Source: Acidimicrobiia bacterium
GTDB lineage: Bacteria; Actinomycetota; Acidimicrobiia; Acidimicrobiales; JANYDT01
Reading direction: 5' to 3'
Assembly: GCA_031381685.1 (NCBI GenBank)
Contig: JANMYF010000037.1
Span: 11,247 to 75,246, forward strand
Length of the DNA stretch: 64,000 nt
The notes below the pieces were generated by a model that was not told where the DNA came from, made no database searches, and saw only the letters and a program-made list of their open reading frames with translations. Shown here piece by piece: positions 1,381 to 58,208 of the stretch. The translations under genes were made by a program, and so were the position numbers. The stretch's first letter is position 1. Each line of letters starts with the position of its first letter.

Positions 1381-2529
1381 TCAGGAACCGATGGACGCAA
1401 GGAGCGGACTGAGGCGCTCGGAGGTGGCGACGTCGGGGATGCTCTGGCGGCGCCGCCACACCAACGCACCAACGGCACCGGTGAGGATCGGCAGGAAGAA
1501 GGTCAGGCCGCGGTAGATCGCCAGCGCGGCAATGGCCTCCGGACGCGAGGAGCCGGCAGTGGTCAGGGCGCCGACGAGACCGAGCTCCATCACGCCGATC
1601 CCGCCGGGAATCGGAACGAACGAACTGACGACACGGACCAGAGCGAATGCCCGGACGACTTCCCATCCGTCGAGTCCGGTGCCGGCGCCGACGGCGTGCA
1701 GGGATGCCAGCAGGATCAGCGCGAGGAGCACCTGCGACACGACGGCGCCACCGACGATCATCGCGCCTCGGCGCCGAATGACCGACCATGCGCTTGCCCG
1801 GAACTCCTCCGACACGGTCGGGATCGGCCAGCGGAAGAGCATGCGCCGAACGGCCGGGACCCGTTCTCCGAGGCGACCGGCCAGTCCGGCGAAGCGACCG
1901 GCGAGCCACGCGGTGCAGCTGGGTCGTGAGAGCGCGATACCCCAGAACACCAGGGGGGCTACGAGGAACCCGACGGCGCCGGCGCCGATGATCATGTCGG
2001 CCCGATCCGCCCGGCCGGCAAGCAGGTCGGGCCACGTGTGCGCTCCGGCAACGAGCCACATGGCGAACGACGGGCAGAGTGCGGTGACGAACAGCGCGAC
2101 GCTCGCCCGGAGCGGACCGACGCCCCAGGACCGCCACATTGCGACACGCAGCGCGGTGCCGATCGCCGAACCGCCCACGATCGCATTCGATGCGCCGAGG
2201 TTCGCCTCGGTCGAGACGGCCATCCGCCCGAATCCGACGGCACCGACAGCGGCCCACTGCTGCGCCACGAGCACGAGGCGGTGGGCGACGACCAGTGCAC
2301 CGAGCACGACCCACCACCGTGCCGAGATCGACTTCGCCTCATTCCACGCGTTCACCATCAGGCTCCGGTGCATGAACGCTCCCGCCGCACTCGCGGTCAG
2401 AAATGCGCCGGTCGCCCAGGACATCCAGCGTCGCGGGAGATGACGGGTGCGGACGTGCGCCTCCGGCATCATCAGTTCGACGGGGGCGGCGAGGGACATC
2501 GACAACCATCTTCGGCCCATCTGCGCCAC
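1381..2529 (-). CDS. Flippase-like / lysylphosphatidylglycerol-synthase TM-domain family (UPF0104) membrane protein
   Basis: 382-aa ORF with many hydrophobic segments and the family-typical C-terminal segment VSSFVPIPGGIGVMELGLVGAL. A paralog lies at 28442..29794. The start codon is uncertain. Confidence 0.65.
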   Translation of the reverse strand: MAQMGRRWLSMSLAAPVELMMPEAHVRTRHLPRRWMSWATGAFLTASAAGAFMHRSLMVNAWNEAKSISARWWVVLGALVVAHRLVLVAQQWAAVGAVGFGRMAVSTEANLGASNAIVGGSAIGTALRVAMWRSWGVGPLRASVALFVTALCPSFAMWLVAGAHTWPDLLAGRADRADMIIGAGAVGFLVAPLVFWGIALSRPSCTAWLAGRFAGLAGRLGERVPAVRRMLFRWPIPTVSEEFRASAWSVIRRRGAMIVGGAVVSQVLLALILLASLHAVGAGTGLDGWEVVRAFALVRVVSSFVPIPGGIGVMELGLVGALTTAGSSRPEAIAALAIYRGLTFFLPILTGAVGALVWRRRQSIPDVATSERLSPLLASIGS

Positions 2530-2620
2530 TACATGAGTGGCTCGCGTTCAGGTGCGCCGCAAATAGGCGTTGGACCCATCACGATGGGCCCGGACACCCA
2601 CACGCCACGCCGGGCCGACG

Positions 2621-3820
2621 TCAACCATCGAGGTGGGCGCCGATGATGGTGTTCATGGCCGCGTCCTCGATGAGAAACGCATCATGGCCGACGATCGAAT
2701 GGACGAGCGCCAGCTCCCGGGGTTTGGGCGAGAGGAACACCAGCTCACGCTGCAGACGGATCGGGTACAGGCGATCGTCGTCGAGACCCACGAACTGCAC
2801 ATCGGCGGTGATGCGCCGCATCGCCGCCGCCACGCCACCACGGTCACGGCCGATGTCGTGGTGGTTCATGGCCTCGTTGATCGCCAGGTACGTGTTGGCG
2901 TCGAACCGGCGCTCGAGTCGCTCGGCGGCGTAATCGAGGTACGACATCACCGCGTAGTGCCCGCGGTCGCGTTCCGCCGACAGGATGCGCTGGTCGCCCT
3001 GGGGCCGGTTCCCGAATCGGCGGTGGAGTTCGAGCTCCGTGCGGTAGGTCATGTGACCGAGGCGACGCGCCTGTGCCATCCCGGCGACCGGGCCATCACC
3101 CTCGCCGATGTCGTAGTAATCGCCACCATGGAAGTCGGGGTCACTGGTGATGCAGTTCATCTGGATCGTCTGCCAGGCGATCTGTTCGGCCGTGGCCGCG
3201 GCACCGCAGCCGATGATCACCGATCGCTGCTGGCGCTCGGGGAAACCGACGGCCCACTCGAGGGCGCGTTGGCCGCCGAGTGACACACCGACGACGCCGA
3301 ACCACACGTCGATGCCCAACACGTCGGCCAGCGCGGCCTCAGCGGCAACCATGTCGCGGGTGGTGATGACCGGCCAGCGCGATCCCCACGGCGCTCCGTC
3401 GGGGGCCAGCTGACCCGGGCCGGTCGTGCCCTGACATCCACCGAGGGTGTTCGGGATGACGACGAAGAACCGGTCGGTGTCGATGCCCAGCCCGGGCCCG
3501 ATGACGCCGTTCCACCAGCCGGCTTCCGGATGACCGGGGCCGGCTGGACCGACGGCGTGGCTGTCGGCGGTGAAGCCGTGCAGGACGAGCACGGCGTTGG
3601 ACCGATCAGCGTTGAGGGTGCCGGCGGTCTCGTAGCAGACGACCGTCTCGGGGAGGACTCCCCCGGCTTCGAGCTTCAGTTCGCCGATCGACGCGAACTG
3701 ACGCCGACCGGGGACGTCTCCGGTGCGCCACACCTTCCGCCATGGCCCGATCGGGTCGCCGTTCGCGTCCACACCGATCGGCGCGGCGCGGTTCGGTTGT
3801 CGAAGGGAGCTATCGGACAC
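2621..3820 (-). CDS. metX: Homoserine O-acetyltransferase
   Basis: 399 aa. MetX signatures present: NAVLVLHGFTADSHA, GWWNGVIGPG, FFVVIPNTLGGCQGTTGP, nucleophile elbow GVSLGGQRALEWA. Sits directly downstream of metY. Confidence 0.9.
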   Translation of the reverse strand: MSDSSLRQPNRAAPIGVDANGDPIGPWRKVWRTGDVPGRRQFASIGELKLEAGGVLPETVVCYETAGTLNADRSNAVLVLHGFTADSHAVGPAGPGHPEAGWWNGVIGPGLGIDTDRFFVVIPNTLGGCQGTTGPGQLAPDGAPWGSRWPVITTRDMVAAEAALADVLGIDVWFGVVGVSLGGQRALEWAVGFPERQQRSVIIGCGAAATAEQIAWQTIQMNCITSDPDFHGGDYYDIGEGDGPVAGMAQARRLGHMTYRTELELHRRFGNRPQGDQRILSAERDRGHYAVMSYLDYAAERLERRFDANTYLAINEAMNHHDIGRDRGGVAAAMRRITADVQFVGLDDDRLYPIRLQRELVFLSPKPRELALVHSIVGHDAFLIEDAAMNTIIGAHLDG

Positions 3821-3940: not shown

Positions 3941-5239
3941 TCAGGCCTTGGCGGCGGCGAACCCGGCGTTCAGGTCGGCCAGCAGATCGTCGATCGACTC
4001 CAGGCCGATGGACAGACGGATCAGGCTGGGGGTGACTCCGGTCGCCGCCTGCTCGGCGGGAGTGAGCTGGCTGTGGGTCGTCGCCGCCGGCTGGATGACC
4101 AGCGAACGAAGATCGCCGACGTTGGCCAGGTGGCTGAACAGCGACAGGGCGTCGACGAACTTCTTGCCCGCCTCGATGCCGCCCTTGAGCTCGAAGTTGA
4201 CGATGGCCCCGGCTCCGTTGGGCAGGTACTTCTTCGCCTTGTCGTTCCAGGGCGAGCTGGCGAGGCCGGGATAGCGGACCAGCTCGACGTCGGGGTGGGC
4301 CTCGAGGAACTTCGCGATCGCCAGCGCGTTGGCGCAATGACGATCCATGCGGACGCTCAGCGTCTCCACGCCTTGGATGAGCAGGAACGAGTTGAACGGA
4401 GCGATCGCCGCGCCGTAGTCACGCAAACCCTGCACGCGCGCCTTGATGATGTAGGCGGGCGCACCGAGCACCTCCCAGTATTTTAAACCGTGGTAGCTCG
4501 GGTCGGGCTCGGTCATCATCGGGAACCGCCCCGAAGCACCCCAGTCGAACTTGCCACCGTCCACGATGATGCCGCCGATCGACGTGCCGTGGCCGCCGAT
4601 GAACTTGGTCAGCGAATGCACGACGATGTCGGCGCCGTGCTCGAGCGGACGGCACAGGTACGGCGTGGCGAGCGTGGCGTCGACGATTAACGGGACGCCG
4701 GCCTCGTGGGCGACACCGGCGACGCCCGTGACGTCGAGGACATCACCCTTCGGGTTGCCGATCATCTCGCCGTAGAGCGCCTTGGTGTTGGGCTTGATGG
4801 CCTTGCGCCAGGCGTCGAGATCATCGGGGTCATCGATGAAGTCGACGGTGATGCCGAGCTTCGGCAGGTTGTAGTGGAACAGGTTGTAAGTGCCGCCGTA
4901 GAGGCTCGCCGAGGCCACGATGTGGTCACCGGCTTCGGCGATGTTCAAGATGGCGAGGGTTTCCGCTGCCTGGCCCGATGCAACCGCCAGGGCCGCGACG
5001 CCTCCTTCGAGCGACGCGATGCGCTGCTCGAGCACATCCTGCGTCGGGTTCATGATGCGTGTGTAGATGTTCCCCGCTTCCGCGAGTCCGAACAGCGCTG
5101 CGGCGTGGTCGGTGTCACGGAACGCGTAGCTGGTGGTCTGGTAGATCGGGGTGGCGCGGGCGCCGGTGGCGGGGTCGGGTGCGGCACCGGCATGGATCTG
5201 CCGTGTTTCGAAACCGAAGGACGAAGGGTCGAGGGCCAT
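3941..5239 (-). CDS. metY: O-acetylhomoserine sulfhydrylase (PLP-dependent, Cys/Met metabolism family)
   Basis: 432 aa. N-terminus FETRQIHAG...[14 protein letters not shown]-lysine region [18 protein letters not shown]-terminus [21 protein letters not shown]-like caggag sits upstream of the ATG at 5239. Confidence 0.9.
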
Positions 5240-5349: not shown

Positions 5350-5490
5350 CTTGCCGCGACCGTCGGATCAGTCAGGTGGTACAGCTCACCGGGATTCCTC
5401 CTTCATCGTACGGGCGTTGGCACCTGGCGGTTCTCGCTGGTTGCCGCGACGTCGACGGGCCCGTCCCTCGGTCGCTCTGGATGACGCGGA
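5350..5490 (-). promoter_or_regulatory. SAM riboswitch of the SAM-I clan (S-box core; P4 appears reduced, as in SAM-IV or SAM-I/IV variants) in the metY-metX leader
   Basis: The minus-strand read of 5488->5395 is CGUCAUCCAGAGCGACCGAGGGACGGGCCCGUCGACGUCGCGGCAACCAGCGAGAACCGCCAGGUGCCAACGCCCGUACGAUGAAGG. It matches the S-box conserved blocks UCAUC-AGAG, GAGGGA, GGCCC, GCAACC, GGUGCCAA and the closing GAUGA. It lies about 155 nt upstream of the metY ATG. Confidence 0.75.
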
Positions 5491-8951: not shown

Positions 8952-9881
8952 GTGGTCGGTGGGAGCATCACTGCCGTGACCACATCGCCCTCCTTCACCG
9001 AGATCCGCTACGACGTCGCCGACCGGGTCGCCACCGTCACCCTCGATCGGCCGGACCGCCTCAACGCCTTCACCGGCCAGATGATGCGGGAGGTGATCCA
9101 GGCGATGGACCTCGCCGACGCCGACGACGGCGTCCGCGCGGTGGTCTTCACCGGCGCCGGTCGGGGGTTCTGTGCCGGCGCGGACCTCGCCGCCGGTGGG
9201 GCAACGTTCGATGGCGCCGCGTCCAAGGGCACCGTCGCCGAAGCGATCGCCGGGACCGTCGACGAACGGATCCGCGACGGGGGCGGCCGGATCTCCTTGC
9301 GACTGTTCGAATCGCGCAAGCCGCTCATCGCCGCGATCAACGGCCCGGCGGTCGGGGTTGGGGTCACCATGACGCTGCCCATGGACATACGCCTGGCGTC
9401 GACGAGTGCCAAGTTCGGTTTCGTCTTCGCCCGCCGTGGCATCGTCCCCGAAGCCTGCTCGAGCTGGTTCCTCCCCCGGCTCGTCGGTATCTCGAAGGCC
9501 ACCGAATGGTGCTTCACCGGCCGTGTCTTCGGTCCTGATGAGGCGCTTGCCGGTGGCCTGGTCCGCAGTGTCCACGCCCCCGACGATCTGCTTCCGGCGG
9601 CCTACGCCTTGGCCGGTGAGATCGCGTCGAACACGTCGGCGGTGAGCGTCGCCGTCACCCGCCAGATGCTGTGGCGCATGCTCGGTGCCGACCACCCGAT
9701 GGAAGCTCACGTGGTCGATTCCCGGGCGATCTGGGAGCTCGGCAAGGGCAAGGACGCCCGTGAGGGTGTCGAATCGTTCCTGGAGAAGCGCCCGGCCGTC
9801 TTCTCGGCCTCGCCTACGACCGACATGCCAGACTTCGTGCCGTGGTGGGAGAACCGACCGTTCCGCGGGTTGCCGCGCTGA
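8952..9881 (+). CDS. Enoyl-CoA hydratase/isomerase (crotonase) family protein
   Basis: Crotonase motifs are present: VATVTLDRPDRLNAF, VVFTGAGRGFCAGADL, PLIAAINGPAVGVGVTMTL. An alternative GTG start at 8976 follows gggag. Confidence 0.85.
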   Translation: MVGGSITAVTTSPSFTEIRYDVADRVATVTLDRPDRLNAFTGQMMREVIQAMDLADADDGVRAVVFTGAGRGFCAGADLAAGGATFDGAASKGTVAEAIAGTVDERIRDGGGRISLRLFESRKPLIAAINGPAVGVGVTMTLPMDIRLASTSAKFGFVFARRGIVPEACSSWFLPRLVGISKATEWCFTGRVFGPDEALAGGLVRSVHAPDDLLPAAYALAGEIASNTSAVSVAVTRQMLWRMLGADHPMEAHVVDSRAIWELGKGKDAREGVESFLEKRPAVFSASPTTDMPDFVPWWENRPFRGLPR

Positions 9882-13168: not shown

Positions 13169-14863
13169 TCAGCGACCCAGCTTCGTGCGGGCGTGGTCGG
13201 TGAGGCGTTTGTAGTCGACCTTGCCCGACGGCGAGCGTCCGATGGTGTCGACGACCACGACGAGCCGGGGGGTCTTGTACCGGGCCAGCCGGGCGGAAAC
13301 CGACGCGAGGACGGCGCCCTCGTCGAACTCGCCCCGGGTGAGCGAGAGCGGCGACGGTTGGATGACGGCACAGATCACCTGTCCGAAACGGTCGTCGGGA
13401 ATTCCGACACAGACCGCATCCTCGACGAGCTCGTGCACCTTGAGCACCTCCTCCACCTCCTCGGGGAACACCTTCTCCCCGCCGGTGTTGATGCACACCG
13501 ACCCGCGACCGAGCAGGAGCAGCGAGCCGTCGGACTGGACCGTGGCGAAGTCGCCCGGGATCGAGTAGCGGACCCCGTCGATGAGCCGGAAGGTTTTGGC
13601 CGACTTCTCCGGATCCTTGTAGTACCCGATCGGCACGTAGCCGCTGATGGCGACGAACCCCTGCTCCTCGGAACCCGGCTCGACGCGCCGGTTGTCGTCG
13701 GTGAAGACGTGGACCGTGGGGCCGAGCTGGAATTTCGCGGTGCCGGCCGACTTTCCCTTCGACGACGTGGATGCACCGAGCCCAACCGCTTCCGACGATC
13801 CGTAGGAATCGACCAGCAAGACGTGGCCGAGGTGTTCGAGCAGCCCGTCCTTGGTCTCCTGGCTCCACATCACGCCGGAACTGGTGATCAGGCGAAGGCT
13901 GCTCAGATCCCAGCGTCCGGGGTTGGCGTTCAATGCCTGGAGGAGCGGCTTGGCGAACGCATCGCCGACGATCACCGCCCAGTTGATCGACTCCCGTTCG
14001 ACGAGGTCGAAGAACTCCTCGGCGACGAACGACCGGCTCGGGTTGGTGACAACGCAACCGCCGAGAGCGAGCACGATCAGCGCCGTGAACTGCCCGGTGC
14101 CGTGCATGAGCGGGCACGCCGGGATCATCACGGGGCCGGGACCCACGGTGCGAGCGGCCAACTCGTCGATCGACGACACCGCCGAGAAACCGAACAGGGG
14201 TTGCCCGCCCTGACCGAGCACGTTGAACAGGTCGTCCTGACGCCACATGACGCCCTTGGGCATGCCGGTCGTTCCGCCGGTGTAGAGGAAAAGCAGGTGG
14301 TCGCCGCTGACGCCCCACGGACCACGGACGTTGGGACCGTCGGGCGTCCATCCGCTGACCAGGTCCTCGTAGGGCACGGCCCACGGTGCGGCCGCCGCTC
14401 CCGAACCGGCCGTGGTGCCCGGGTCGTCGACGACGTACCACCGCTTCACCTTCGGAAGCTCGGCACGAACCGTGTCGACCAACTCGGTATAAGCGGCATG
14501 GAACACGACGGCTTCCGCGTCGGAGTTGTCGAACAGGTAGCGGATCTCGTCGGCCCCGTAGCGGTAGTTCGTGTTCACCGGCACGAGACCCGCCTTGAAC
14601 GCGGCGAGATAGACCTCGAGGAATTCCGGACCGTTGGTGAGGTACGCGGCGACCTTCGACTGCTCGCCGAGCCCGGCGGCGAGCAGATCGTCGGCCAGCG
14701 CGTTGGCCCGGGCATTGAACGAGCCCCAGCTGAAGCGCCGAGAACCGGCGACCTGGGCTGGCGCATCCGGCACCCGTCCGGCTATGGCTTCGAGCGCTTC
14801 GGCAAAGTTCCAGCCGCTCACGAATGTCCTTTCGAGGCAGACGACGTCGTCGCATGGCGACAC
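13169..14863 (-). CDS. Acyl-CoA synthetase (AMP-forming), paralog 1 of 3
   Basis: 564 aa. Motifs LFLYTGGTTGMPKGVMWRQDD, GYYKDPEKSAKTF, PGDFATVQSDGSLLLLGRGSVCINTGGEKVFPEEVE. Clearly paralogous to 21607..23229 and 23226..24902. Confidence 0.85.
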   Translation of the reverse strand: MSPCDDVVCLERTFVSGWNFAEALEAIAGRVPDAPAQVAGSRRFSWGSFNARANALADDLLAAGLGEQSKVAAYLTNGPEFLEVYLAAFKAGLVPVNTNYRYGADEIRYLFDNSDAEAVVFHAAYTELVDTVRAELPKVKRWYVVDDPGTTAGSGAAAAPWAVPYEDLVSGWTPDGPNVRGPWGVSGDHLLFLYTGGTTGMPKGVMWRQDDLFNVLGQGGQPLFGFSAVSSIDELAARTVGPGPVMIPACPLMHGTGQFTALIVLALGGCVVTNPSRSFVAEEFFDLVERESINWAVIVGDAFAKPLLQALNANPGRWDLSSLRLITSSGVMWSQETKDGLLEHLGHVLLVDSYGSSEAVGLGASTSSKGKSAGTAKFQLGPTVHVFTDDNRRVEPGSEEQGFVAISGYVPIGYYKDPEKSAKTFRLIDGVRYSIPGDFATVQSDGSLLLLGRGSVCINTGGEKVFPEEVEEVLKVHELVEDAVCVGIPDDRFGQVICAVIQPSPLSLTRGEFDEGAVLASVSARLARYKTPRLVVVVDTIGRSPSGKVDYKRLTDHARTKLGR

Positions 14864-16405: not shown

Positions 16406-17230
16406 CTACGAAGGGTCGGTGTAGTTCGCCGGACGCTTCTCGAAGAATGCGGTGACGGCTTCGATCTGGTTCGGCGACCCGATAAGGGCGCGGATCTCGC
16501 GGCGCTCCGCCGCCAGTCCTTCGGCCGCCGTGACGTGCCCGGCGTTGTTCAGCAGGCGCTTCCCGGCCCGGATGGCGTGGGGGCTCCGTCCGGCGATCTC
16601 GGCCGCTGTCTCGAGAGCCAGCGCTCTCGGGTCATCGGCCATGCGGGTCGCCAGGCCGATGCGGACAGCCTCTTCGGCGCCGACCATACGACCGGTGAAG
16701 GTGAGCTCCTTGGCCTTGTCGAGGCCGACGAGTTCGCGCAGCAGCTGCGTCCCGGCCATGTCGGGGATCAGGCCCCAGCGGATCTCGAGGATCGACATCT
16801 GTACGTCGGGCGAGACGTAGCGCAGGTCGGCGCCAAGGGCGATCTGGCAGCCGCCGCCGAGGGCGGCTCCGTGCACCGCGGCGATGACCGGGACCGCCAG
16901 CTCGTGCCAGACCCACACGGCCTGCTGACCGGCGTGGGTGATGCGGCCGGGGAGCCGGGACGGGTCCTCGGGATCGCCGTCCTGGGGGAGCACGCTCGCG
17001 CCGCGCCCTCCGGCCATGGCCTGGAAGCTCCCGAAGTCGAGGCCGGCGCAGAAGCTCCGTCCTTCACCCGAAAGCACGACGGCGCGCACCGACGAGTCCG
17101 TCTTGAGCGCCTCCCCGACCTCGACCAGCGCCGAGAACATGGCGCCGTCGATGGCGTTCATCTTGTCGGCTCGGTTCATGCGGACGTCGGCGACGCCCCC
17201 GTCGATCACACACGTCACTCGGTCGCTCAT
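16406..17230 (-). CDS. Enoyl-CoA hydratase/isomerase (crotonase) family protein
   Basis: Motifs VADVRMNRADKMNAI, VVLSGEGRSFCAGLDF, PVIAAVHGAALGGGCQIAL. ATG 17230 was chosen because the upstream extension to 17362 is not protein-like. Confidence 0.85.
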   Translation of the reverse strand: MSDRVTCVIDGGVADVRMNRADKMNAIDGAMFSALVEVGEALKTDSSVRAVVLSGEGRSFCAGLDFGSFQAMAGGRGASVLPQDGDPEDPSRLPGRITHAGQQAVWVWHELAVPVIAAVHGAALGGGCQIALGADLRYVSPDVQMSILEIRWGLIPDMAGTQLLRELVGLDKAKELTFTGRMVGAEEAVRIGLATRMADDPRALALETAAEIAGRSPHAIRAGKRLLNNAGHVTAAEGLAAERREIRALIGSPNQIEAVTAFFEKRPANYTDPS

Positions 17231-17371
17231 GTTCCCATCCTCGCCGTCGGCGCCGGTCGGAGACAAAACGGCGTCGGCCGCGTCGCAGGGCTTGCGACCG
17301 TTCGAGGACGTCGGCCACGATGCCAATCGTCTCCGGACGGCCAGCACAGCCTCGTGCCTCAAGCCTCAGGC

Positions 17372-17580: not shown

Positions 17581-18660
17581 GTGATTGTGAATCGACTCGA
17601 CATTGATGCTGGCGCGTTCGAAGCGGCGACCGGCTGGCAGATCAAGCCCGAGGGTGCCTGCAAGGGTGACGTATGCGTGCCGCTCGACCGCTCCGGCGGC
17701 GCAGCGGACGGCTTCGACCTCATGGCGACCGCGGATCGGCTGGGCATGGCCATCGTCGCCGATGCCGACGCCGGCCTGTGGTCGATCGGTCCCGAGAGCC
17801 TCGGCGGTCGCTCGCTCACCACGGCCACCGCACCTGAGCTGTCACTGCCCGACGTGCTGACGGGCGCAGAGGTCAGGCTGTCGTCGTTTCGCGGGAAGAA
17901 GGTGGTGCTCGCCTCCTGGGCACCGTATTGAGGGTGCCGCTTCGACCTGCCCGGGTGGCAGGCACTGCGCAACGAGGTACACGGCAAAGGTGTCGAGATC
18001 ATCACTGTTGGCCTCGAGATGGGCGGCGCCGAGGTGCTCCGGCCCATCGTCGAAGCAGCCCGGCCCGAGCACCCGTCGCTGGTCGACGCCTCGCACCAGA
18101 TGGACGCGCTGTTCGGCGTCACCAACATCCCGCAGGTGCTGTGGATCGACGAGACCGGCACGATCGTGCGACCGGCCGAACGCGGTTCTCCTGCGCCGCA
18201 GCCGACCGAGGACCCGTTCGCGAAGTTCATCTTCGAGCTCATGGCCCGGGGCACGACGCATCCCGAGTGGTACGGCGATCGCGTCCGCGACTGGGCGGAG
18301 AAGGGATCCGACAGTGAATGGGTTCTCACGCCCGAGGCGGTGATCGCCGGGTCGCATCCCCGCACGCGCGACGTGTCCGAGGCTGCGGCGCACTTCGCAC
18401 TCGCGCAGCACTTCTGGTCCACGGACGGATTCTCCGCCCCGGCGTTGCATCACTTCGAGCGCGCCCACACGCTCCAGCCGGAGAACATCACCTACAAGCG
18501 GCAGGCCTACTCGGCATGGAGCTTCGCGAAAACGCACGACGACACCGCGCGATTCGCGCAGTCGCCGAATCCCGGTGAAGAAGACCAGTGGCCCTTCGTC
18601 TCGGAGTTCTTTGCCGATGCGAAGCAGTACCTGGGACTCGACCTGGTCGCACCGTCCTGA
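17581..18660 (+). CDS. ResA/TlpA-like thioredoxin-fold protein with an in-frame TGA (17929-17931) at the active-site Cys position; candidate selenoprotein, copy 1
   Basis: ORFs 17320..17931 and 18019..18660 share a frame and are split only by TGA. Read-through gives ...GKKVVLASWAPY-U-GCRFDLPGWQALRNEVHGKGVEIITVGLE...NIPQVLWIDETGTIVRP. It is homologous end to end with the gene at 37253..38347, which has TGA at the same column. The start (GTG 17581 or 17587) is uncertain. Confidence 0.65.
17946..17962 (+). promoter_or_regulatory. SECIS-like hairpin 14 nt downstream of the in-frame TGA (copy 1)
   Basis: CCTGCC-CGGGT-GGCAGG has a 6-bp stem and a 5-nt loop carrying G and U. The same stem occurs at the same offset in copy 2. 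Confidence 0.45.
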
Positions 18661-19853: not shown

Positions 19854-20387
19854 GTGCGTTTTCGACTTTCCCGCCGTATCCCCGTTGCCCTCGGCCTGGC
19901 GTTCGTCGCCGTGGGTGCAGCCTCCGTGCCGGTGTCCGCCCAGAAGCTTCCCAAGGATCTCGGAGAGTACATCGCCGAGGCCGACAAGCTCTGCGCTGCG
20001 TCGAACGTGAAGCTCCTGGATGAATCGAAGAAGATCGAGACGGAGAAGGCGCGCTCAACACGCGGCGGGCGACTCAAGAAGGTCGACATTGCCCTGCCCG
20101 ACGCTGTTGCGAAGTACACCGCCACGATCGCGGTACCGGAACTGGAGAAGCTCAGCGCCAGCCTTCGTGACATCCCGAGCCCCCGGGGTGACGAGAAGAC
20201 GATCGACACGCTCCTCGATCAGTTCGATGCCGGTATCGCGGCGGTGAAGAAGGACCCGAAGTCGGCGATTTTCAGCGACCCGCTGAAGGCTTCGTCGAAG
20301 GCGTTCAAGGCCGTCCGGTTTGGGGAGAACGCGAAGTTCAGCGCGTGCGGCATTCATATCGATCGCGTCGAAGACAAGAAGAAGTAG
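19854..20387 (+). CDS. Secreted hypothetical protein (Lys-rich)
   Basis: It has a signal-peptide-like N-terminus MRFRLSRRIPVALGLAFVAVGAASVPVSAQ. I recognise no family. Confidence 0.45.
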   Translation: MRFRLSRRIPVALGLAFVAVGAASVPVSAQKLPKDLGEYIAEADKLCAASNVKLLDESKKIETEKARSTRGGRLKKVDIALPDAVAKYTATIAVPELEKLSASLRDIPSPRGDEKTIDTLLDQFDAGIAAVKKDPKSAIFSDPLKASSKAFKAVRFGENAKFSACGIHIDRVEDKKK

Positions 20388-20391
20388 CCCC

Positions 20392-21540
20392 ATGAAGCGG
20401 GCGATCTTCAACGACGAACACGTCATGTTCCGCGATGCGTTCCGGCGCTTCGTGGAGAAAGAGATCACCCCCAATTTCCTCGCCTGGGAGCAGGCCGGGA
20501 TCGTCCCGCGCGAGCTGTTCGCCGCCGCCGGCGCAAACGGCTTCCTCGCCCTGCAGGCGCCCGAAGCCTTCGGTGGTGGCGGGACCCACGACTTCCGATT
20601 CAATGCCATCATCGGCGAGGAACTCATGTACGCCGGCACCGGCGGCGCCGGGCTCGGCATCACCCTGCACAACGACATCACCCTCCCCTATTTCTTGGAG
20701 CTGACCACCGACGAGCAGAAGCAGCGCTGGCTCCCGGGTATTTGCAACGGCTCGCTCATCACGGCGGTGGCCATGACCGAGCCGGGTATCGGCTCGGACC
20801 TCGCGTCAATGTCGACCACCGCTCTGCGCGACGGCGACCACTACGTCGTGAACGGTTCGAAGACCTTCATCACCAACGGCATCAACGCCGACCTCGTGAT
20901 CACGGCAGTGAAGACCGATCCGTCGCAGAAGCACAAGGGCATGACGCTGATGGTGCTCGAACGCGGCATGGACGGATTCACCCGCGGGCGCAACCTCGAC
21001 AAGATCGGCATGCACTCCCAGGACACGGCCGAGCTGTTCTTCACCGACGTGCGGGTGCCGGTCGCCAACCGTCTCGGCGACGAAGGTCAGGGCTTCGCAC
21101 TCCTTGTTCGCAACCTGGCCCAGGAGCGGCTGTCCATCGCTGTAGCCGGTGTCGCGGCGGCGCGGGCGGCGCTCGATTGGACGGTCGAATACACCAAGAA
21201 CCGCAAGGCGTTCGGGCAGCCCGTCGCGTCGTTCCAGAACTCGAAGTTCCGACTCGCCGAGATCGCCACGGAGGTCGAGATCGGGCAGGTTTTCGTCGAC
21301 CGTTGCATCGAGCAACTCAACGCCGGCGAGCTCACCGTCGAAGAGGCGGCCATGGCCAAGTGGTGGTGCACCGAACTGCAGAAGCGCACCGTCGACACCT
21401 GCGTGCAGCTCCACGGTGGCTACGGCTACATGCAGGAGTACCCGATCGGCCGCGCCTATGTCGATGCCCGCATCACCACGATCTATGGAGGCACGACCGA
21501 GATCATGAAAGAGATCATCGGCCGCAAGGTCGTTGGCTGA
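20392..21540 (+). CDS. Acyl-CoA dehydrogenase
   Basis: 382 aa from ATG 20392. Motifs AVAMTEPGIGSDLASM, NGSKTFITNG, QLHGGYGYMQEYPIGRAYVDARITTIYGGTTEIMKEIIG. Confidence 0.9.
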   Translation: MKRAIFNDEHVMFRDAFRRFVEKEITPNFLAWEQAGIVPRELFAAAGANGFLALQAPEAFGGGGTHDFRFNAIIGEELMYAGTGGAGLGITLHNDITLPYFLELTTDEQKQRWLPGICNGSLITAVAMTEPGIGSDLASMSTTALRDGDHYVVNGSKTFITNGINADLVITAVKTDPSQKHKGMTLMVLERGMDGFTRGRNLDKIGMHSQDTAELFFTDVRVPVANRLGDEGQGFALLVRNLAQERLSIAVAGVAAARAALDWTVEYTKNRKAFGQPVASFQNSKFRLAEIATEVEIGQVFVDRCIEQLNAGELTVEEAAMAKWWCTELQKRTVDTCVQLHGGYGYMQEYPIGRAYVDARITTIYGGTTEIMKEIIGRKVVG

Positions 21541-21606: not shown

Positions 21607-23229
21607 CTACGCAGATTCGAGAGTCTGGCGAGCCCAGGCGTAGTCGGCCTTGCCGTTGGCGGCACGGCGCACTTCGCTCACGATGACCGAAGTGCGCGGG
21701 AGCTTGTAGCTGGCCAGCCACCGCTTCACCTCGTCCAGGACGACGTCCGGATCACCGACGGCCGCTCCCTCGTGAAGGGACAGCACGGCGGCGACGCGCT
21801 CGCCGAAGCGCTCGTCGGGAAGGCCGACAACGAGGCAGTCGGCCACGGCGGGGTGGCGCTTCATCGCCTCTTCGACCTCCTCGGGGAACACCTTCTCGCC
21901 TGCGGTGTTGATGCAGTGCGAGCCCCGGCCGAGGAGCACGAGGGTCCTGTCCTCCGCCCACACGGCCCAGTCGCCGGCCATGGTGTGGCGTACGCCGTCG
22001 ATCTCCACGAACGTCGCCGCGGATTTCGCCGGGTCGTTGAAGTAGCCGAGCGGCACCACCGCGCACGCGGCGATCCGGCCGCGTTCGCTGGAGCCGGGCG
22101 GGATGACGGAACCGTCCTCGCCGATGAGCTTCGTTCCGGCAAGCGGTTCGAACCGTGCGGTCTCGATGGGCGTTCCTCTCGTGACGATGCGACGGGCCAT
22201 GGCCCCTTCCGTCGACCCCATCGAATCGACGAGACGCACGTCGAGGTGGCGGAGCAGTCCGGTCTGGACCTCGGCACTCCACATCACACCGCTCGACTGG
22301 ATGATCCGCAGCGCGGAGAGATCGTAGCCACGGCCCTCGTCGACGGCCCGGTCGAGGGCGTCGAGCATCGGTCGCGCAAAGGCGTCGCCGACGATGGTCA
22401 CGGCATCGGCACGAACCTCGGATGCGGTCCGCCAAAGCTCGTCGGCGTCGAAGGAACGGCTCGCCAGAGTGACGACGCAGCCCCCCATGAGGTGCGCATA
22501 GAACGCTCCGAGCCACATGCCGGTGCCATGCATGAGCGGACAGGCCGGGATGCTCACCCGCCGATCTCCCGCGTCCCGGTGCGCAGTGATGTGCTCCAGC
22601 AACGTCTCCGCCGTCGGCACGTCCCATCCGCGGTAGAGGTACCCCGTGAGACTGCGCCGCACGAAGTCGCCAATGCGGAACATCACCCCCTTGGGCATGC
22701 CGGTCGTGCCGCCGGTGTACAGCATGTACATGTCGTCGTCGGACCCGCGCAACGTTTCTTCCGGATCATACGCGCGCAGACTGTCAGTCCACGTTGTTTC
22801 CACGAGCTGATCGACCGCGTTGTTCTCAGCCCCGGCGATCACCACCTGGCGCAGTGACGGAACACGTGGCCGGATCGTACGCACGCGCTCCGACAATCCG
22901 CTCTCGGTGACGAGCACCGTCATCGCACTGTCGTTGGCCAGGTATGCCAGTTCGTCGTCAAGGTAGCGATAGTTCACATTGACCGGCACGGCCCGGCGGA
23001 GAAAGGCTCCGTACTGCGCGATCAGGTACGTCGGCGAGTTGTGGAGAAGGAGTCCGACCCGGTCACCGGGACCGACGCCCACGGATGCGAGGAATGTGGC
23101 GAACCGTGCGGCTTCGTCATGGAATGCGGACCATGTCCACGTGGCTCCCACGTGCTGCAACGCAAGGTCGCCGCCGTACCGCCCGGCGATCTCGGTGAAG
23201 ATGTTGGCGAAGTGCAGTCGATCGGTCAC
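21607..23229 (-). CDS. Acyl-CoA synthetase (AMP-forming), paralog 2 of 3
   Basis: 540 aa. Motifs MYMLYTGGTTGMPKGVMFRIGD and GDWAVWAEDRTLVLLGRGSHCINTAGEKVFPEEVE. Confidence 0.85.
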   Translation of the reverse strand: MTDRLHFANIFTEIAGRYGGDLALQHVGATWTWSAFHDEAARFATFLASVGVGPGDRVGLLLHNSPTYLIAQYGAFLRRAVPVNVNYRYLDDELAYLANDSAMTVLVTESGLSERVRTIRPRVPSLRQVVIAGAENNAVDQLVETTWTDSLRAYDPEETLRGSDDDMYMLYTGGTTGMPKGVMFRIGDFVRRSLTGYLYRGWDVPTAETLLEHITAHRDAGDRRVSIPACPLMHGTGMWLGAFYAHLMGGCVVTLASRSFDADELWRTASEVRADAVTIVGDAFARPMLDALDRAVDEGRGYDLSALRIIQSSGVMWSAEVQTGLLRHLDVRLVDSMGSTEGAMARRIVTRGTPIETARFEPLAGTKLIGEDGSVIPPGSSERGRIAACAVVPLGYFNDPAKSAATFVEIDGVRHTMAGDWAVWAEDRTLVLLGRGSHCINTAGEKVFPEEVEEAMKRHPAVADCLVVGLPDERFGERVAAVLSLHEGAAVGDPDVVLDEVKRWLASYKLPRTSVIVSEVRRAANGKADYAWARQTLESA

Positions 23230-37252: not shown

Positions 37253-38347
37253 GTGCTCCTGACGACGCTGTCGCCCTCTCCCGAAGAACTCTTCGAGCAG
37301 ACCGGTTGGGAGGCGAAACCGGAGGGGCTCTGTCGCGGTGCGGTGTGCGTGCCCTCCCCCGGAGCCCGGCGGGCCGACGGGACGATCGATGTGTCGATCG
37401 TCGCCGAGCGGCTCTCGATGCCAATGCTCCGTGATGAAGCGTCGGGCACCTGGGTGCTCGGCCCGTCCGCCCTGAGCGGCCGAGCGCTCGACACGGCCGT
37501 GGTCCCGCCGCTGTCGATCACGACATTCGACGGCACACCGTTCGACCTCTCGTCGCTGCTCGGGCGGAGGATCATCCTCGCCGCCTGGGCGAGTTGGTGA
37601 GGCTGCCGCGCTGACCTGCCCGTGTGGCAGGCACTGCACGAAGAACTCTCCCCGCTCGGCATCACCGTCGTGACGGTGGCCATGGATGCCGAGGTGGCGA
37701 TGGCCGAGCCCTGGGTGTCGGCGGCATCGCCGACGCATCCGTCGCTGATCGACCGCACGCACAGCCTCGGCGGCGCCCTCGGATTCGTCAACGTGCCGAT
37801 GGCGGCGTGGATCGACGAGAACGGCGTGCTCGTCCGCCCCGCCGAGTCCGCTCGGGTCGTCCCGAGCAGCACGGCCGGGCGGGAGGTCCCGCCCGGCCTC
37901 CCGCCACGCATCGCCGCACGCTTCGAGCTGCTGCGCCATGCCGAGCCGAACCCCCACAAGCCGTACCTGGCGGCGTTGCGCGACTGGGCACATCGCGGTG
38001 TCGACAGCCCATTCGCCCTCACCCCGGACGAAGTGGTCGAACGGTCAAAGCCTCGCGACGCCGACGAGGCCCGGGCCGCCGCCTGCTTCGAGATGGGCGA
38101 ACACCTGAGAGAAACCGTCGGCATCGACGCGGCAGCCCCGTGGTGGCGGGAAGCCCATCGCCTTCAGCCGTCGAATTGGACCTACAAACGTCAGGCCTGG
38201 ACCTTGGAGACGACGGCTCCCGGTCAGCCTTCGGATCTCGTCCAGGAACCGACCGACCGCTACGAGGGCAACTGGCTCGACGATCTCGTGGCCCAGGGTG
38301 GCCTGAAGAACCAGACACCGGCGTTCTCCGGTCCGTCAACCCGCTGA
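37253..38347 (+). CDS. ResA/TlpA-like thioredoxin-fold protein with an in-frame TGA (37598-37600) at the active-site Cys position; candidate selenoprotein, copy 2
   Basis: ORFs 37106..37600 and 37622..38347 share a frame and are split only by TGA. Read-through gives ...GRRIILAAWASW-U-GCRADLPVWQALHEELSPLGITVVTVAMD...NVPMAAWIDENGVLVRP. It is colinear with copy 1 over the N-domain, Trx fold and C-domain. The start (GTG 37253 or ATG 37190) is uncertain. Confidence 0.65.
37615..37631 (+). promoter_or_regulatory. SECIS-like hairpin 14 nt downstream of the in-frame TGA (copy 2)
   Basis: CCTGCC-CGTGT-GGCAGG has the same stem and offset as copy 1. The single difference lies in the loop. Confidence 0.45.
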
Positions 38348-38920: not shown

Positions 38921-38987
38921 GCCTTCCAGCGTGGCAGGCGATCCGGGTCAGCGGCGCCACGGCGCCGGTCAACTAGCCTTGACTGCC

Positions 38988-40175
38988 GTGTCTGAGGGGG
39001 AATCCGCCGAGTCGTCGATCGGCCGCGCCGCTCAGACCGTTGCGGTGACCGCCGGCCGAAGTCGTGCCGACGGCGCCCTCGCCCCCACGATCTGGCCGTC
39101 CACGACGTTCGAGATCGGCACCCCGCTCGAAGCCGGCCGCATCGCCAGCCGGCCGCGGGAACCCAGGTTCTATGCGAGACACGGGAACCCCAGCGTGCGG
39201 GCGTTCGAAGACGCCATGGCAGAACTGGAGGGCACGGAGGCAGCACTCGCGTTCGGATCGGGCATGGCCGCGATCAGCGCCGCCGTCCTGGGGTTCTGTC
39301 CCACCGGCTCACACGTGATCGCGCAACGTCAGATGTATGGCGGAACGCTGCAGTATCTGGGCCTCGTGGCCACCCGCCTCGGCATTTCGTACTCCCTCGT
39401 CGATGTCCACGAGCCCGGCGGGTTCGCCGCTGCGCTCGCCGCCCATCCGAACACCACGCTGATCCTCGCCGAGACCCCGGCCAACCCGAACCTCGATCTC
39501 GTCGATCTTGACGAGCTCGCCGCGCTGACCGGGCCGATCAAGCTCGTCGACGCCACCTTCGCCACGCCCATCGGTCAGCGCACCTACCGTCCGGGCATCG
39601 ACATGGTGATGCATTCGGCGACCAAGGCCATCGCCGGGCACAATGACGCGTGCCTGGGCGTGATCAGCGGTGAACGCGAAGTGGTCGACTGGTTGTGGAG
39701 TTACAACATCATGCTCGGTGCGGTCGCCTCCCCCTACGACGCCAGCAACGCGTTGCGCGGCCTTCGTTCTCTCGGCGTCCGCTTCCGTCATCAGTCCGAA
39801 ACCGCGCTCAGGATCGCTGCTGCGCTCGAGTCCCGACCCGAGGTCAACTGGGTTCGCTACCCCGGCCTTCCGTCGCACCCGCAGCACCGTCTGGCGAAAA
39901 GCCAGATGAGCCTTCACGGTGGTCTGCTCACGTTCGATCTCGCCGGTGGACGCGGCGATGCTGCGGCGTTCATGAACCGCTCGACCCTGGCCGTCGTCGC
40001 CACGTCGCTGGGAGGCCCCGAGACCCTCCTCACCCATCCGGCCACCACATCGCACGCTGGACTCGACGAGGACGAACTCGCGGCAGTCGGGATCTCCCAA
40101 GGCACGCTGCGCGTCTCGTGCGGTCTCGAGGACACCGACGATCTCCTGCGTGATCTCCTCGCTGCGCTCGGCTGA
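38988..40175 (+). CDS. Cys/Met-metabolism PLP-dependent enzyme (cystathionine gamma-synthase/lyase family)
   Basis: Y.RHGNPSVRAFEDAMAELEG, AFGSGMAAISA, PLP lysine in MHSATKAIAGHND, C-terminal LRVSCGLEDTDDLLRDL. GTG 38988 was chosen; 38931 is possible. Confidence 0.8.
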   Translation: MSEGESAESSIGRAAQTVAVTAGRSRADGALAPTIWPSTTFEIGTPLEAGRIASRPREPRFYARHGNPSVRAFEDAMAELEGTEAALAFGSGMAAISAAVLGFCPTGSHVIAQRQMYGGTLQYLGLVATRLGISYSLVDVHEPGGFAAALAAHPNTTLILAETPANPNLDLVDLDELAALTGPIKLVDATFATPIGQRTYRPGIDMVMHSATKAIAGHNDACLGVISGEREVVDWLWSYNIMLGAVASPYDASNALRGLRSLGVRFRHQSETALRIAAALESRPEVNWVRYPGLPSHPQHRLAKSQMSLHGGLLTFDLAGGRGDAAAFMNRSTLAVVATSLGGPETLLTHPATTSHAGLDEDELAAVGISQGTLRVSCGLEDTDDLLRDLLAALG

Positions 40176-56508: not shown

Positions 56509-57573
56509 TCAATCGCGGGCGAAGGCACCAGTGGCCGCAAGCACGCGATCGCAGAGTTCGGACGGACCCTCGACCTCGACCGCCAGAGCGCCGGGAGCGA
56601 GGCGTCGCGACGCGACGCGGCAGAAGTCGACAATGTCAGCGGTGATGGTCACGTCCGGAAACCCGACCTCGGACTGAAGCGCCATGGGTCGGCGATACGT
56701 TGCGCCACCCGTCCCGGTGAGGACGATCTCCATCGTCTTCCCGGGAACGGCTGTGCCCGTCACCGTGAGCGCGGCGGGAAGCGCGTCCATCAGCTCCGAC
56801 GACATCAGCTGGAGGCGGGCTCGATCGATGATCGGCAGCGGTCGTCTCGTCGCACGGCACACATCTTCGTGATGCGTCCACACCTCGAACATCCGCAGGA
56901 CGAACATCCCGCGAACGGTCGTCGGCACATCGTTGACGAGAATGGGCCGGTCCGGCGATCCGATCGACGCCACCACCCGCAAACGGCGTGCTCCTCCCAC
57001 CCAACGTTCGAGGAGCGCTTCGGTAGTCATTTCCCGACACGCCTGCACGTGGTCCGCCGTCGCCTGCACGTGGTCGGCCCAGCGGGACGGGTCCGGGGGC
57101 GACCCCTCGCCGAGGACCCCGAGGAGGTTCTCCTCCACGCCGACGAGATGCGCGATCAGATCACGGACTCGCCCGTATTGCCCCAGGGCGGGCGCAGTCC
57201 ACTCATCGGGTCGGAGATCGGCGAGAAGGCGGTGGAGCGCATCGACCGTCGCAAGAAACGCCTCGGATGGACTGATGGGTTCCGACCCAACCAGCGGTGT
57301 GCCCGGTGCTCGCCGTGACCTGGCTTCCGAGAGCACCCGCTCGCGAAGGTCGGCGGGCGGCTCCTCCTCCGTGAGCTCTGCCAGTGCGATCGCGACCCGA
57401 CGAGCATCATCCACGTCGATCGGGGCAACGGACATCGCTGCAGCGCGGCGATCGTCACCCTCGATAGCGTCAAGTGCAAGAGCGGCAACCAAATCCATTT
57501 CGTCGGGCGCAACGATCTCCTCGGCCAGGACTTCGGGTCCCTTCACTCGTTTCGGAGAGTTCGCGCTGCTCAT
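56509..57573 (-). CDS. Putative cytoplasmic anti-sigma partner with a DinB/mycothiol-maleylpyruvate-isomerase-N-like domain
   Basis: ATG 57573 overlaps the ECF sigma stop (ATGA). The middle region WTAPALGQYGRVRDLIAHLVGVE...WADHV resembles the MDMPI_N/DinB fold. It has no TM segment and no HxxxCxxC motif. Confidence 0.5.
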   Translation of the reverse strand: MSSANSPKRVKGPEVLAEEIVAPDEMDLVAALALDAIEGDDRRAAAMSVAPIDVDDARRVAIALAELTEEEPPADLRERVLSEARSRRAPGTPLVGSEPISPSEAFLATVDALHRLLADLRPDEWTAPALGQYGRVRDLIAHLVGVEENLLGVLGEGSPPDPSRWADHVQATADHVQACREMTTEALLERWVGGARRLRVVASIGSPDRPILVNDVPTTVRGMFVLRMFEVWTHHEDVCRATRRPLPIIDRARLQLMSSELMDALPAALTVTGTAVPGKTMEIVLTGTGGATYRRPMALQSEVGFPDVTITADIVDFCRVASRRLAPGALAVEVEGPSELCDRVLAATGAFARD

Positions 57574-58208
57574 GTCCACGCCCATCGATCGTCCTTGTCG
57601 AGTTGTTCGCGAAGTCGGGCCAACGCCAGACGAAGACGCGATTTGGCCGTTCCTTCGGGTATCCCGAGTTCATCCGCGACCTGTCGGTAGGTGCGACCCT
57701 CGAAATACGCCAAGCGAAGCGCGTCACGCTGCTCGACGGGGAGCGCATTGACCAGGCCGAGGAGCCGCTCCTTGCGCCAACGAAGCGCCGAATGGTGCAG
57801 CGCCTCGGTCTCACCGGATGGAGACGACTGTTCGGAAGTGGCCCGGAACCGATCCTCCGCCATCCGACGGCGTTCGGATCGACGGACGGCGTCGACTGCT
57901 CGTCGATGGGCGATCATACCGAGATAGGCCTTCAATGAACCGCGCGACAGATCGACCCGGTCCGGGAACTCCCAGAGATACGTGAACACTTCGCTGGTCA
58001 CCTCCCGAGCGGTCAGGTCGTCGCCGCTCACCGACTTCGCAAGTCCGTACACGAGCGGCGAGTACTGGTCGTAGATCACGCCGAGCGCGCCGTCGTCGCC
58101 AGCGACCAAACGGTTGAGCAGCGAGGCGCTCGTTCCGAATTCCGCAACAGCGTCGGACCCCGGCGAAGGTTCCACCGGGCGAAGCCTAGGGAGTTCGAGT
58201 GTGGTCAC
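57570..58208 (-). CDS. ECF-type RNA polymerase sigma-70 family factor
   Basis: Region 2 reads YDQYSPLVYGLAKSVSGD...EVTSEVFTYLW...YLGMIAHRRAVDAVR. Region 4 reads LRLAYFEGRTYRQVADELGIPEGTAKSRLRLALARLR. Confidence 0.85.
   Translation of the reverse strand: MTTLELPRLRPVEPSPGSDAVAEFGTSASLLNRLVAGDDGALGVIYDQYSPLVYGLAKSVSGDDLTAREVTSEVFTYLWEFPDRVDLSRGSLKAYLGMIAHRRAVDAVRRSERRRMAEDRFRATSEQSSPSGETEALHHSALRWRKERLLGLVNALPVEQRDALRLAYFEGRTYRQVADELGIPEGTAKSRLRLALARLREQLDKDDRWAWT

Follow-up and report, generated by a model that had tools for sequence, protein, structure and literature searches.

Two genes in a 64,000-nucleotide stretch of an Acidimicrobiia genome (contig JANMYF010000037.1; the whole stretch is called the window) are each interrupted by an in-frame TGA, and each TGA is followed at the same distance by a small hairpin. 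Comparison with related sequences indicates that each hairpin is very probably a bacterial selenocysteine insertion sequence (bSECIS) of compact size that lies within the coding part of a selenoprotein gene, one encoding a TlpA/ResA-like thioredoxin-fold protein with a UGC motif, in which U stands for selenocysteine (Sec). The bSECIS is canonical and the protein family has already been catalogued; the finding is correct, and not novel in kind.

The hairpins were pointed out by a model that read the letters of the window and made no database searches (the sequence-only reading). It had placed a hairpin 14 nt after both TGAs, with a 6-bp stem, a 5-nt loop with G at its second position and a loop starting 20 nt from the UGA. 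Coordinates, sequence and geometry proved exact in both copies (Table 1). The two hairpins do differ, as it had said, at a single place, loop position 3, which is G in copy 1 and T in copy 2 (Gly versus Val), and this change spares the stem. The folding energy of each 17-nt hairpin is -9.3 kcal/mol. According to the bSECISearch constraints of Zhang and Gladyshev, as given in a review (PMC13188914), a bSECIS has an apical loop of 3-9 nt, an upper stem of 4-16 bp, a UGA-to-loop distance of 16-37 nt, a minimum free energy (MFE) of -7.5 kcal/mol or lower, and a G as the first or second loop base, with G or U usually next to it on the 3' side. Both copies fall within every one of these limits, in agreement with the reading of their geometry as that of a bSECIS. 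Likewise, the UGA-to-loop distance is 20 nt in every homolog, 144/144 sequences have G in alignment column 31, which is loop position 2, and all have G or U at position 3.

In both genes, translation through the TGA yields a single uninterrupted protein. The NCBIfam model NF041054, 'ResA-like WAxxUGC motif-containing protein' (WAxxUGC_long), has a curated cut-off of 300 bits and scores 352.9 bits with copy 1 (E-value 2e-105) and 427.2 bits with copy 2 (6e-128), both alignments spanning the TGA. The thioredoxin-fold Pfam domains AhpC-TSA and Redoxin also cover the TGA site in both proteins. Besides the score, the window genes share with this family the WAxxUGC motif, a length of ~360 aa, an N-terminal CxxxxC region and a C-terminal tail of the NWTYKRQAW type. 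Nothing of substance differs; copy 1 falls in a WAPY-UGC sub-branch and has NITYKRQAY as its tail, in place of NWTYKRQAW. Paralogs 1 and 2 are 39% identical to each other. Paralog 1 is 56% identical to a Cys-form protein (P0090), and paralog 2 is 86-91% identical to three loci from Acidimicrobiia metagenome-assembled genomes (MAGs; L001-L003), which places the window in Acidimicrobiia. The GTG starts of both coding sequences (CDSs) were inferred by alignment to full-length Cys homologs (MILxxL...).

Full-length homologs with Cys in the TGA column (WASWCGC) occur in Frankia, Albidiferax, Verrucomicrobia, Porticoccaceae and some Acidimicrobiia. The family is already listed as a selenoprotein by NCBI and in the Zhang/Gladyshev catalogues, also under the name 'UGC-containing TlpA', and the 'Prx-like (UGC-containing)' family from the GOS (Global Ocean Sampling) survey comprised 46 Sec and 855 Cys sequences (PMC2398784). 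The names 'WAxxUGC' and 'NF041054' were absent from the literature searched, where the family appears under other names.

Relatives were collected in two scans. The genome scan, in which each species was represented by one genome, found 80 loci, every one of them in Acidimicrobiia or unclassified Actinomycetota MAGs, and TGA stood at the site in 76 of 76 motif-matching sequences (74 of the 80 genome loci plus the two window copies). The metagenome scan was seeded with Cys-type proteins and gave another 80 loci, 73 with TGA at this codon and 7 with Cys. Depending on the flank length used, the distinct TGA-form sequences number 145-152; one alignment, A3, holds 144. A search seeded with copy 1 reached the WAPY-U-GC sub-branch, returning many C-terminal fragments (55-92% identity) together with Cys forms (49-61%), and the three copy-1-type loci whose DNA was read (L169, L170, L171) have the same TGA and hairpin. 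The sequence-only reading would have given way to TGA homologs that lack a stem-loop; the hairpin is kept at the same offset across ~150 distinct TGA-form homologs. By the usual criteria of family match, Cys in homologs, TGA retention and a frame conserved on both sides, the TGA is a predicted Sec codon.

These data also bear on the view that the TGAs are true stops in split genes or pseudogenes, the hairpin being irrelevant or serving as transcription or translation punctuation between two open reading frames (ORFs). Automatic gene callers do split such genes, and many C-terminal fragments of 207-253 aa stand in the database as 'hypothetical protein'. Set against this, TGA occupies the identical codon in ~150 distinct sequences from several lineages, and on either side of it the same frame is conserved, with one hidden Markov model spanning both flanks. 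No T-run follows the hairpin, and no downstream start codon or Shine-Dalgarno context is required. A pseudogene would not keep one stop at the active-site codon over 50-90% protein divergence. We regard true stops as the least probable of all the explanations considered, with next to no chance of being right.

Comparative folding supports the hairpin itself. RNAalifold, applied from -45 to +105 around the TGA in 152 sequences, returns the 6-bp/5-nt-loop hairpin as the only consensus structure, and the same 6 pairs come back from the 144-sequence alignment, where they are retained in 856 of 864 cells. Pairs 27:37 (G-C) and 29:35 (C-G; numbers are alignment columns) are present in all 144 sequences, pair 26:38 is U-A in 143 and U-G in 1, and pair 28:36 is C-G in 142 and U-G in 2. 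Pair 24:40 is C-G in 129, U-G in 6, U-A in 3 and broken in 6, and pair 25:39 is C-G in 130, U-A in 9, U-G in 3 and C-A in 2, so that U-G intermediates are present at both. The change from C-G to U-A at 25:39 has at least four independent origins (L044, the L060 clade, L126 and L138) on a neighbour-joining tree of the downstream proteins. Between L044 and L064, which are 87.8% identical at the DNA level, the segment from the UGA to +52 differs only at +18 (C/U) and +32 (G/A), the two partners of this pair. Covariation, which the sequence-only reading had proposed as a check, is thus found at two pairs of the stem, with U-A and U-G replacements and these independent double changes. A seventh G-C pair is added when the preceding codon is AGC (58 sequences). 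Within the same limits of -45 to +105, RNAalifold found no longer or lower helix and no partner for AGU-UAU, whether all sequences, the Y-type alone or the W-type alone were used; a few weak 2-3-bp helices returned from the W-type alone were disregarded.

Synonymous sites in the stem are nearly frozen. The stem Leu codon is CTG in 133 sequences, TTG in 12 and never any other, so that it ends in G in 145/145 cases versus 47.5% in the background of the same genes (CTC 45%, CTG 38%). Leu at +12, six codons later, is an internal control: there the codons are CTG 80, CTC 30, CTT 12, TTG 10, TTA 3 and CTA 2, and only 90 of 137 end in G (Fisher p = 1e-17 against the stem Leu). Likewise, the stem Pro is CCC in 136 of 143 sequences, with a background of 39% CCC and 47% CCG. 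The loop codon is GGG 71 times, GTG 66, GGT 5, GTC 2 and GGA once; within each residue class, GGG makes up 71 of 77 Gly codons and GTG 66 of 68 Val codons, against backgrounds of 16% of Gly and 40% of Val. Ser at +5 is encoded by AGC or AGT in 62/62 cases and never by TCN. Unlike the stem sites, the synonymous sites of the spacer are free to vary: Gly +1 is GGC 96, GGG 24, GGA 16 or GGT 9 times, Cys +2 is TGC 104 or TGT 41 times, and Arg +3 uses 6 codons. The length of the spacer is invariant, with 0 indels among the 144 aligned sequences. An alternative hairpin that uses the first CUGCC (codons +1 to +3) and appears in the MFE structure of copy 2 was rejected, synonymous sites there varying freely.

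Cys-form homologs, of which 14 distinct DNAs were available, served as controls. Where Leu is present at the stem position, the codon is CTC or CTT in 4 of 9, which breaks the central G-C pair; the stem Pro is CCG or CCA in 5 of 9, and two Cys forms have CAA without the matching TTG. The loop residue is usually Leu (CTG, CTC, CTA) or Ile, not Gly or Val. One Cys form, L172, encodes the same DLPGWQ peptide as copy 1 with a broken stem (GAC CTT CCC GGT TGG CAG C), and L164 has CTC as its stem Leu codon, which also breaks the stem. In most of the 14 the constraint is relaxed or the stem broken, and 3-4 retain it. Three with TGC at the Sec position (L161, L162 and L168) have an intact stem; L161 (3340) and L162 also keep the loop codon of a SECIS (CTG CCC G[G/T]G TGG CAG), and L161 even retains TAT before the codon. 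L161 and L162 look like recent conversions from Sec to Cys that carry a fossil SECIS.

The sequence-only reading had cautioned that conservation here might come purely from the protein, D-L-P-x-W-Q-A. The hairpin would in that case be a by-product of [D/S]-L-P-x-W-Q-A and of high-GC codon bias (CTG, CCC, TGG, CAG, GCN), and the RNA fold would have no function. It is true that the stem encodes L-P and W-Q, that CTG/CAG and CC/GG are reverse complements, and that L-P-x-W-Q is common in Cys forms, where L161, L162 and L168 have the complete stem. Such an origin does not account for CTG/TTG and CCC at the stem codons against a different background in the same genes, nor for Ser before the stem being always AGY, which adds a G-C pair, nor for the co-occurrence of TTG with CAA. 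Furthermore, the loop residue is Gly or Val, as GGG or GTG, in TGA forms and Leu or Ile in most Cys forms, and the stem is broken in Cys forms that encode the same peptide (CTC in L164, CTT in L172). Codon bias, compensatory changes and relaxation in Cys forms thus overturn the caveat. The by-product explanation is largely refuted by these comparisons and we hold it to be very improbable; as judged from the aligned sequences, the hairpin is constrained at the nucleotide level, beyond the protein level.

Several observations weigh against a SECIS. Single-sequence folding of the 62 nt after each TGA is unremarkable relative to shuffles, which are at least equally stable (z = +1.07 and +0.25). 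When 30 nt of upstream sequence are included, the MFE structure adopts other pairings and the hairpin's predicted pairing probability is 0.0 (copy 1) and 0.19 (copy 2), compared with ~0.6 when the upstream sequence is left off. In the folding check suggested in the sequence-only reading, the isolated 17-mers have the energy given above and the 62-nt folds are unexceptional. The stem is short (6 bp) and has no conserved lower helix. The nominal P-values for codon bias, 1e-17 to 1e-50, are overstated, since related sequences are counted as independent, although their direction is unambiguous. The full hairpin in the Cys forms L161 and L162 means that its presence alone is not diagnostic of Sec. 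Rfam gave no match to its SECIS families (RF00031, RF01988-RF01991; SECIS_1 to SECIS_5) in the whole window at gathering thresholds, and in the 151-nt region 17880-18030 at E <= 10 it gave no SECIS family, only noise. No tRNA gene, and so no tRNA-Sec, was found by ARAGORN in the 64 kb, no selA, selB or selD was found by a Pfam scan among 40 window ORFs, and ARAGORN found no tRNA-Sec in 1.17 Mb of related loci. A tblastn search of the same 1.17 Mb with an approximate E. coli SelD query had no match, a weak negative.

Single-sequence folding with shuffles is uninformative for a co-translational element. At 67% GC, the window has 697 TGA triplets on its + strand and, on each strand, 46 perfect 6-bp/5-nt-loop hairpins, which leads to an expectation of ~0.5 chance cases of TGA, 14 nt and a hairpin. 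Within the window taken by itself, the hairpin does not exceed chance, and its two occurrences are not independent because the genes are paralogs; set in the alignment of homologs, it is far beyond chance. The Rfam miss is as expected, given how poorly that collection models bacterial SECIS elements. The Rfam families, of the same nominal function, describe SECIS elements of eukaryotes and a few lineage-specific ones from bacteria, and they are likewise unmatched for Acidimicrobiia in a preprint (10.64898/2026.04.03.716425).

The search for Sec machinery covers ~2% of a genome, and sel genes need not be linked to selenoprotein genes. The 40 ORFs scanned include acyl-CoA ligases, enoyl-CoA hydratases, an acyl-CoA dehydrogenase, FtsH, Trp-synthesis genes and a two-component system. 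Elsewhere in the class, selA, selC and selD together with a divergent selB are present in all 84 complete Actinomarina genomes (Actinomarinales, Acidimicrobiia; preprint 10.64898/2026.04.03.716425). That no such machinery was found in the window or in the 1.17 Mb of related loci would fit a recoding signal that does not insert Sec, one that promotes near-cognate read-through of UGA (e.g. by tRNA-Trp or tRNA-Cys) or a regulated termination giving a short and a long product. The tie between hairpin constraint and TGA presence also suits this, as any recoding signal needs it. Against such a signal, the codon lies at the redox-active Cys of a thioredoxin-fold CxC centre, a classic site at which Sec and Cys are exchanged, both the loop G[G/U] and the spacing fit the SelB-dependent bSECIS model, the family is curated as a selenoprotein by NCBI and in the Zhang/Gladyshev catalogues, and Sec machinery exists in other Acidimicrobiia. 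There is thus only a slim chance that UGA is recoded here as anything other than Sec.

How the element would act as a SECIS can be proposed from the E. coli and Moorella paradigm (PMC13188914), from which we infer SelB binding, the position of the hairpin on the ribosome, competition with release factor 2 (RF2) and Sec as the inserted residue. Once the UGA occupies the A site, mRNA upstream of it would be held inside the ribosome, and the competing pairings predicted by RNAfold would therefore be removed. The 17-nt stem-loop, starting 14 nt downstream, would then sit just outside the mRNA entry channel, where its apical loop C-G-[G/U]-G-U could offer the G and G/U bases to the C-terminal winged-helix domain of SelB. 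SelB.GTP.Sec-tRNA(Sec), tethered in this way by the A site, would outcompete RF2, so that Sec is inserted and translation goes on. The product would have a U-G-C redox centre where homologs have C-G-C.

Like the elements described by the bSECIS model, the window element is a stem-loop within coding sequence, immediately 3' of a Sec-UGA. It lies at the compact end of that class, with 6 bp (7 with a preceding AGC) and without a conserved lower stem or internal loop. The optional N1-N2 closing pair of the model would be C.U in the majority loop C-G-G/U-G-U; here loop positions 1 and 4 covary instead. In E. coli fdhF, the SECIS reportedly has a minimal upper stem-loop of 17 nt that begins 11 nt after the UGA, as work of Liu and colleagues from 1998 and SelB-SECIS structures are said to indicate. 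The two have in common a short upper stem-loop of ~17 nt at a fixed distance (11 nt there, 14 nt here) and an exposed loop G and U, the presumed SelB contacts in both. Their sequences are unrelated, and no bulged U is evident on the 5' side of the stem in the window element. The host is a high-GC actinobacterium, and its element is predicted from sequence.

Two features outside the hairpin stem also show constraint. In Tyr-type genes, the UGA is preceded at codons -2 and -1 by AGT TAT in almost every case. TAT was found in 58/58 genes of the first set and in 61/62 overall, the sole exception being TAC in the second copy of L170; in the background of the same genes, 12-13% of Tyr is encoded by TAT and 6-8.5% of Ser by AGT. 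The window itself has CCG TAT in copy 1 (17923-17928) and AGT TGG in copy 2. These U-ending codons may reflect a 5' context effect on Sec insertion or termination, which might operate through P-site codon:anticodon geometry or RF2 competition.

The second feature is in the loop. Its position 1, where the Pro codon ends, and its position 4, where the Gly/Val codon ends, vary in concert, being C..G 144 times, A..U 5, G..C 2 and A..A 1; L171 adds one A..G, and the joint changes arose several times independently. One reading this suggests is that position 1 pairs with the fixed U5 (A-U or G.U), leaving a GGU or GUC triloop; another is that a 1:4 pair leaves a 2-nt G-[G/U] apex exposed. One could imagine a minimal actinobacterial class of SECIS defined by a 1:4 Watson-Crick-closed apex with a 3' bulged U and by a 5' context of U-ending codons, both outside the bSECIS model. 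We advance this as speculation that is unlikely to hold. If true, the rules for 1:4 apex and 5' context would sharpen the prediction of selenoprotein genes in high-GC Actinomycetota.

The value of the finding is mainly one of annotation, as gene callers cut WAxxUGC selenoprotein genes at the TGA; it leaves the accepted view of Sec insertion in bacteria as it was. Hundreds of entries named 'hypothetical protein' (207-253 aa, no Pfam match; P0001-P0004, P0122-P0134 and others) correspond to the C-terminal two-thirds of the selenoprotein. Judging from the genes compared, UGA is probably read as Sec in this uncultured Acidimicrobiia lineage, with two or more such genes in each genome. Furthermore, the comparative set is an unusually clean natural experiment on an RNA signal in a coding region: the SECIS dictates the residue of the loop codon, Gly or Val in Sec forms and Leu in Cys forms, synonymous sites are frozen, and fossil hairpins are left behind in recently converted Cys forms.

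Table 1. Positions of the two candidate selenoprotein genes, their recoding elements and nearby genes of acyl-CoA metabolism in the window.
Feature	Position	Strand	Details
In-frame TGA, copy 1, putative Sec codon	17929-17931	+	aligns with Cys of WASWCGC / WAPYCGC in homologs
Spacer, copy 1	17932-17945	+	gggtgccgcttcga; 14 nt from UGA to stem; codons G-C-R-F and first two bases of D
Candidate SECIS hairpin, copy 1	17946-17962	+	5' arm CCUGCC 17946-17951; loop CGGGU 17952-17956; 3' arm GGCAGG 17957-17962
In-frame TGA, copy 2, putative Sec codon	37598-37600	+	
Spacer, copy 2	between TGA 37598-37600 and 5' arm at 37615	+	ggctgccgcgctga; 14 nt
Candidate SECIS hairpin, copy 2	37615-37631	+	5' arm CCUGCC 37615-37620; loop CGUGU 37621-37625; 3' arm GGCAGG 37626-37631
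Paralog 1, read-through CDS, predicted WAxxUGC (UGC-containing TlpA/ResA-like) selenoprotein	17581-18660	+	359 aa; U at residue 117; motif WAPY-U-GC; stop 18658-18660
Paralog 2, read-through CDS, same WAxxUGC family	37253-38347	+	364 aa; U at residue 116; motif WASW-U-GC
Acyl-CoA metabolism genes near copy 1	104-1348, 8952-9881, 13169-14863, 16406-17362, 20320-21540, 21607-23229, 23226-24902		

Copies 1 and 2 lie 19.7 kb apart in the window. One related locus, L170, has two tandem TGA-form paralogs back to back (1168-2232, WAPY-U-GC; 2232-3329, WASY-U-GC), each with the hairpin. Several Sec paralogs per genome seem to be usual in this lineage.

When the window was scanned for in-frame TGAs with coding-like sequence on either side, no additional candidate came up beyond one at 57316 (+), which has coding-like GC content at third codon positions on both sides. 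This TGA is antisense to a real minus-strand gene (56509-57585) and was rejected. A gene for an extracytoplasmic function (ECF) sigma factor (57570-58208) adjoins that minus-strand gene.

No conserved operon partner of the two genes is evident, and the neighbours of homologs elsewhere vary (hydrolases, P450, CoA-transferases). Genes of acyl-CoA metabolism are dense around copy 1, with four AMP-binding ligases, two enoyl-CoA hydratases and one acyl-CoA dehydrogenase. An S-adenosylmethionine (SAM) riboswitch (RF00162, 62.4 bits; 5400-5487, minus strand) lies upstream of a gene for a pyridoxal phosphate (PLP) enzyme of Cys/Met metabolism (3941-5239, minus strand). A second Cys_Met_Meta_PP gene (38931-40175, plus strand) is found ~0.6 kb downstream of copy 2, past an intervening minus-strand gene.

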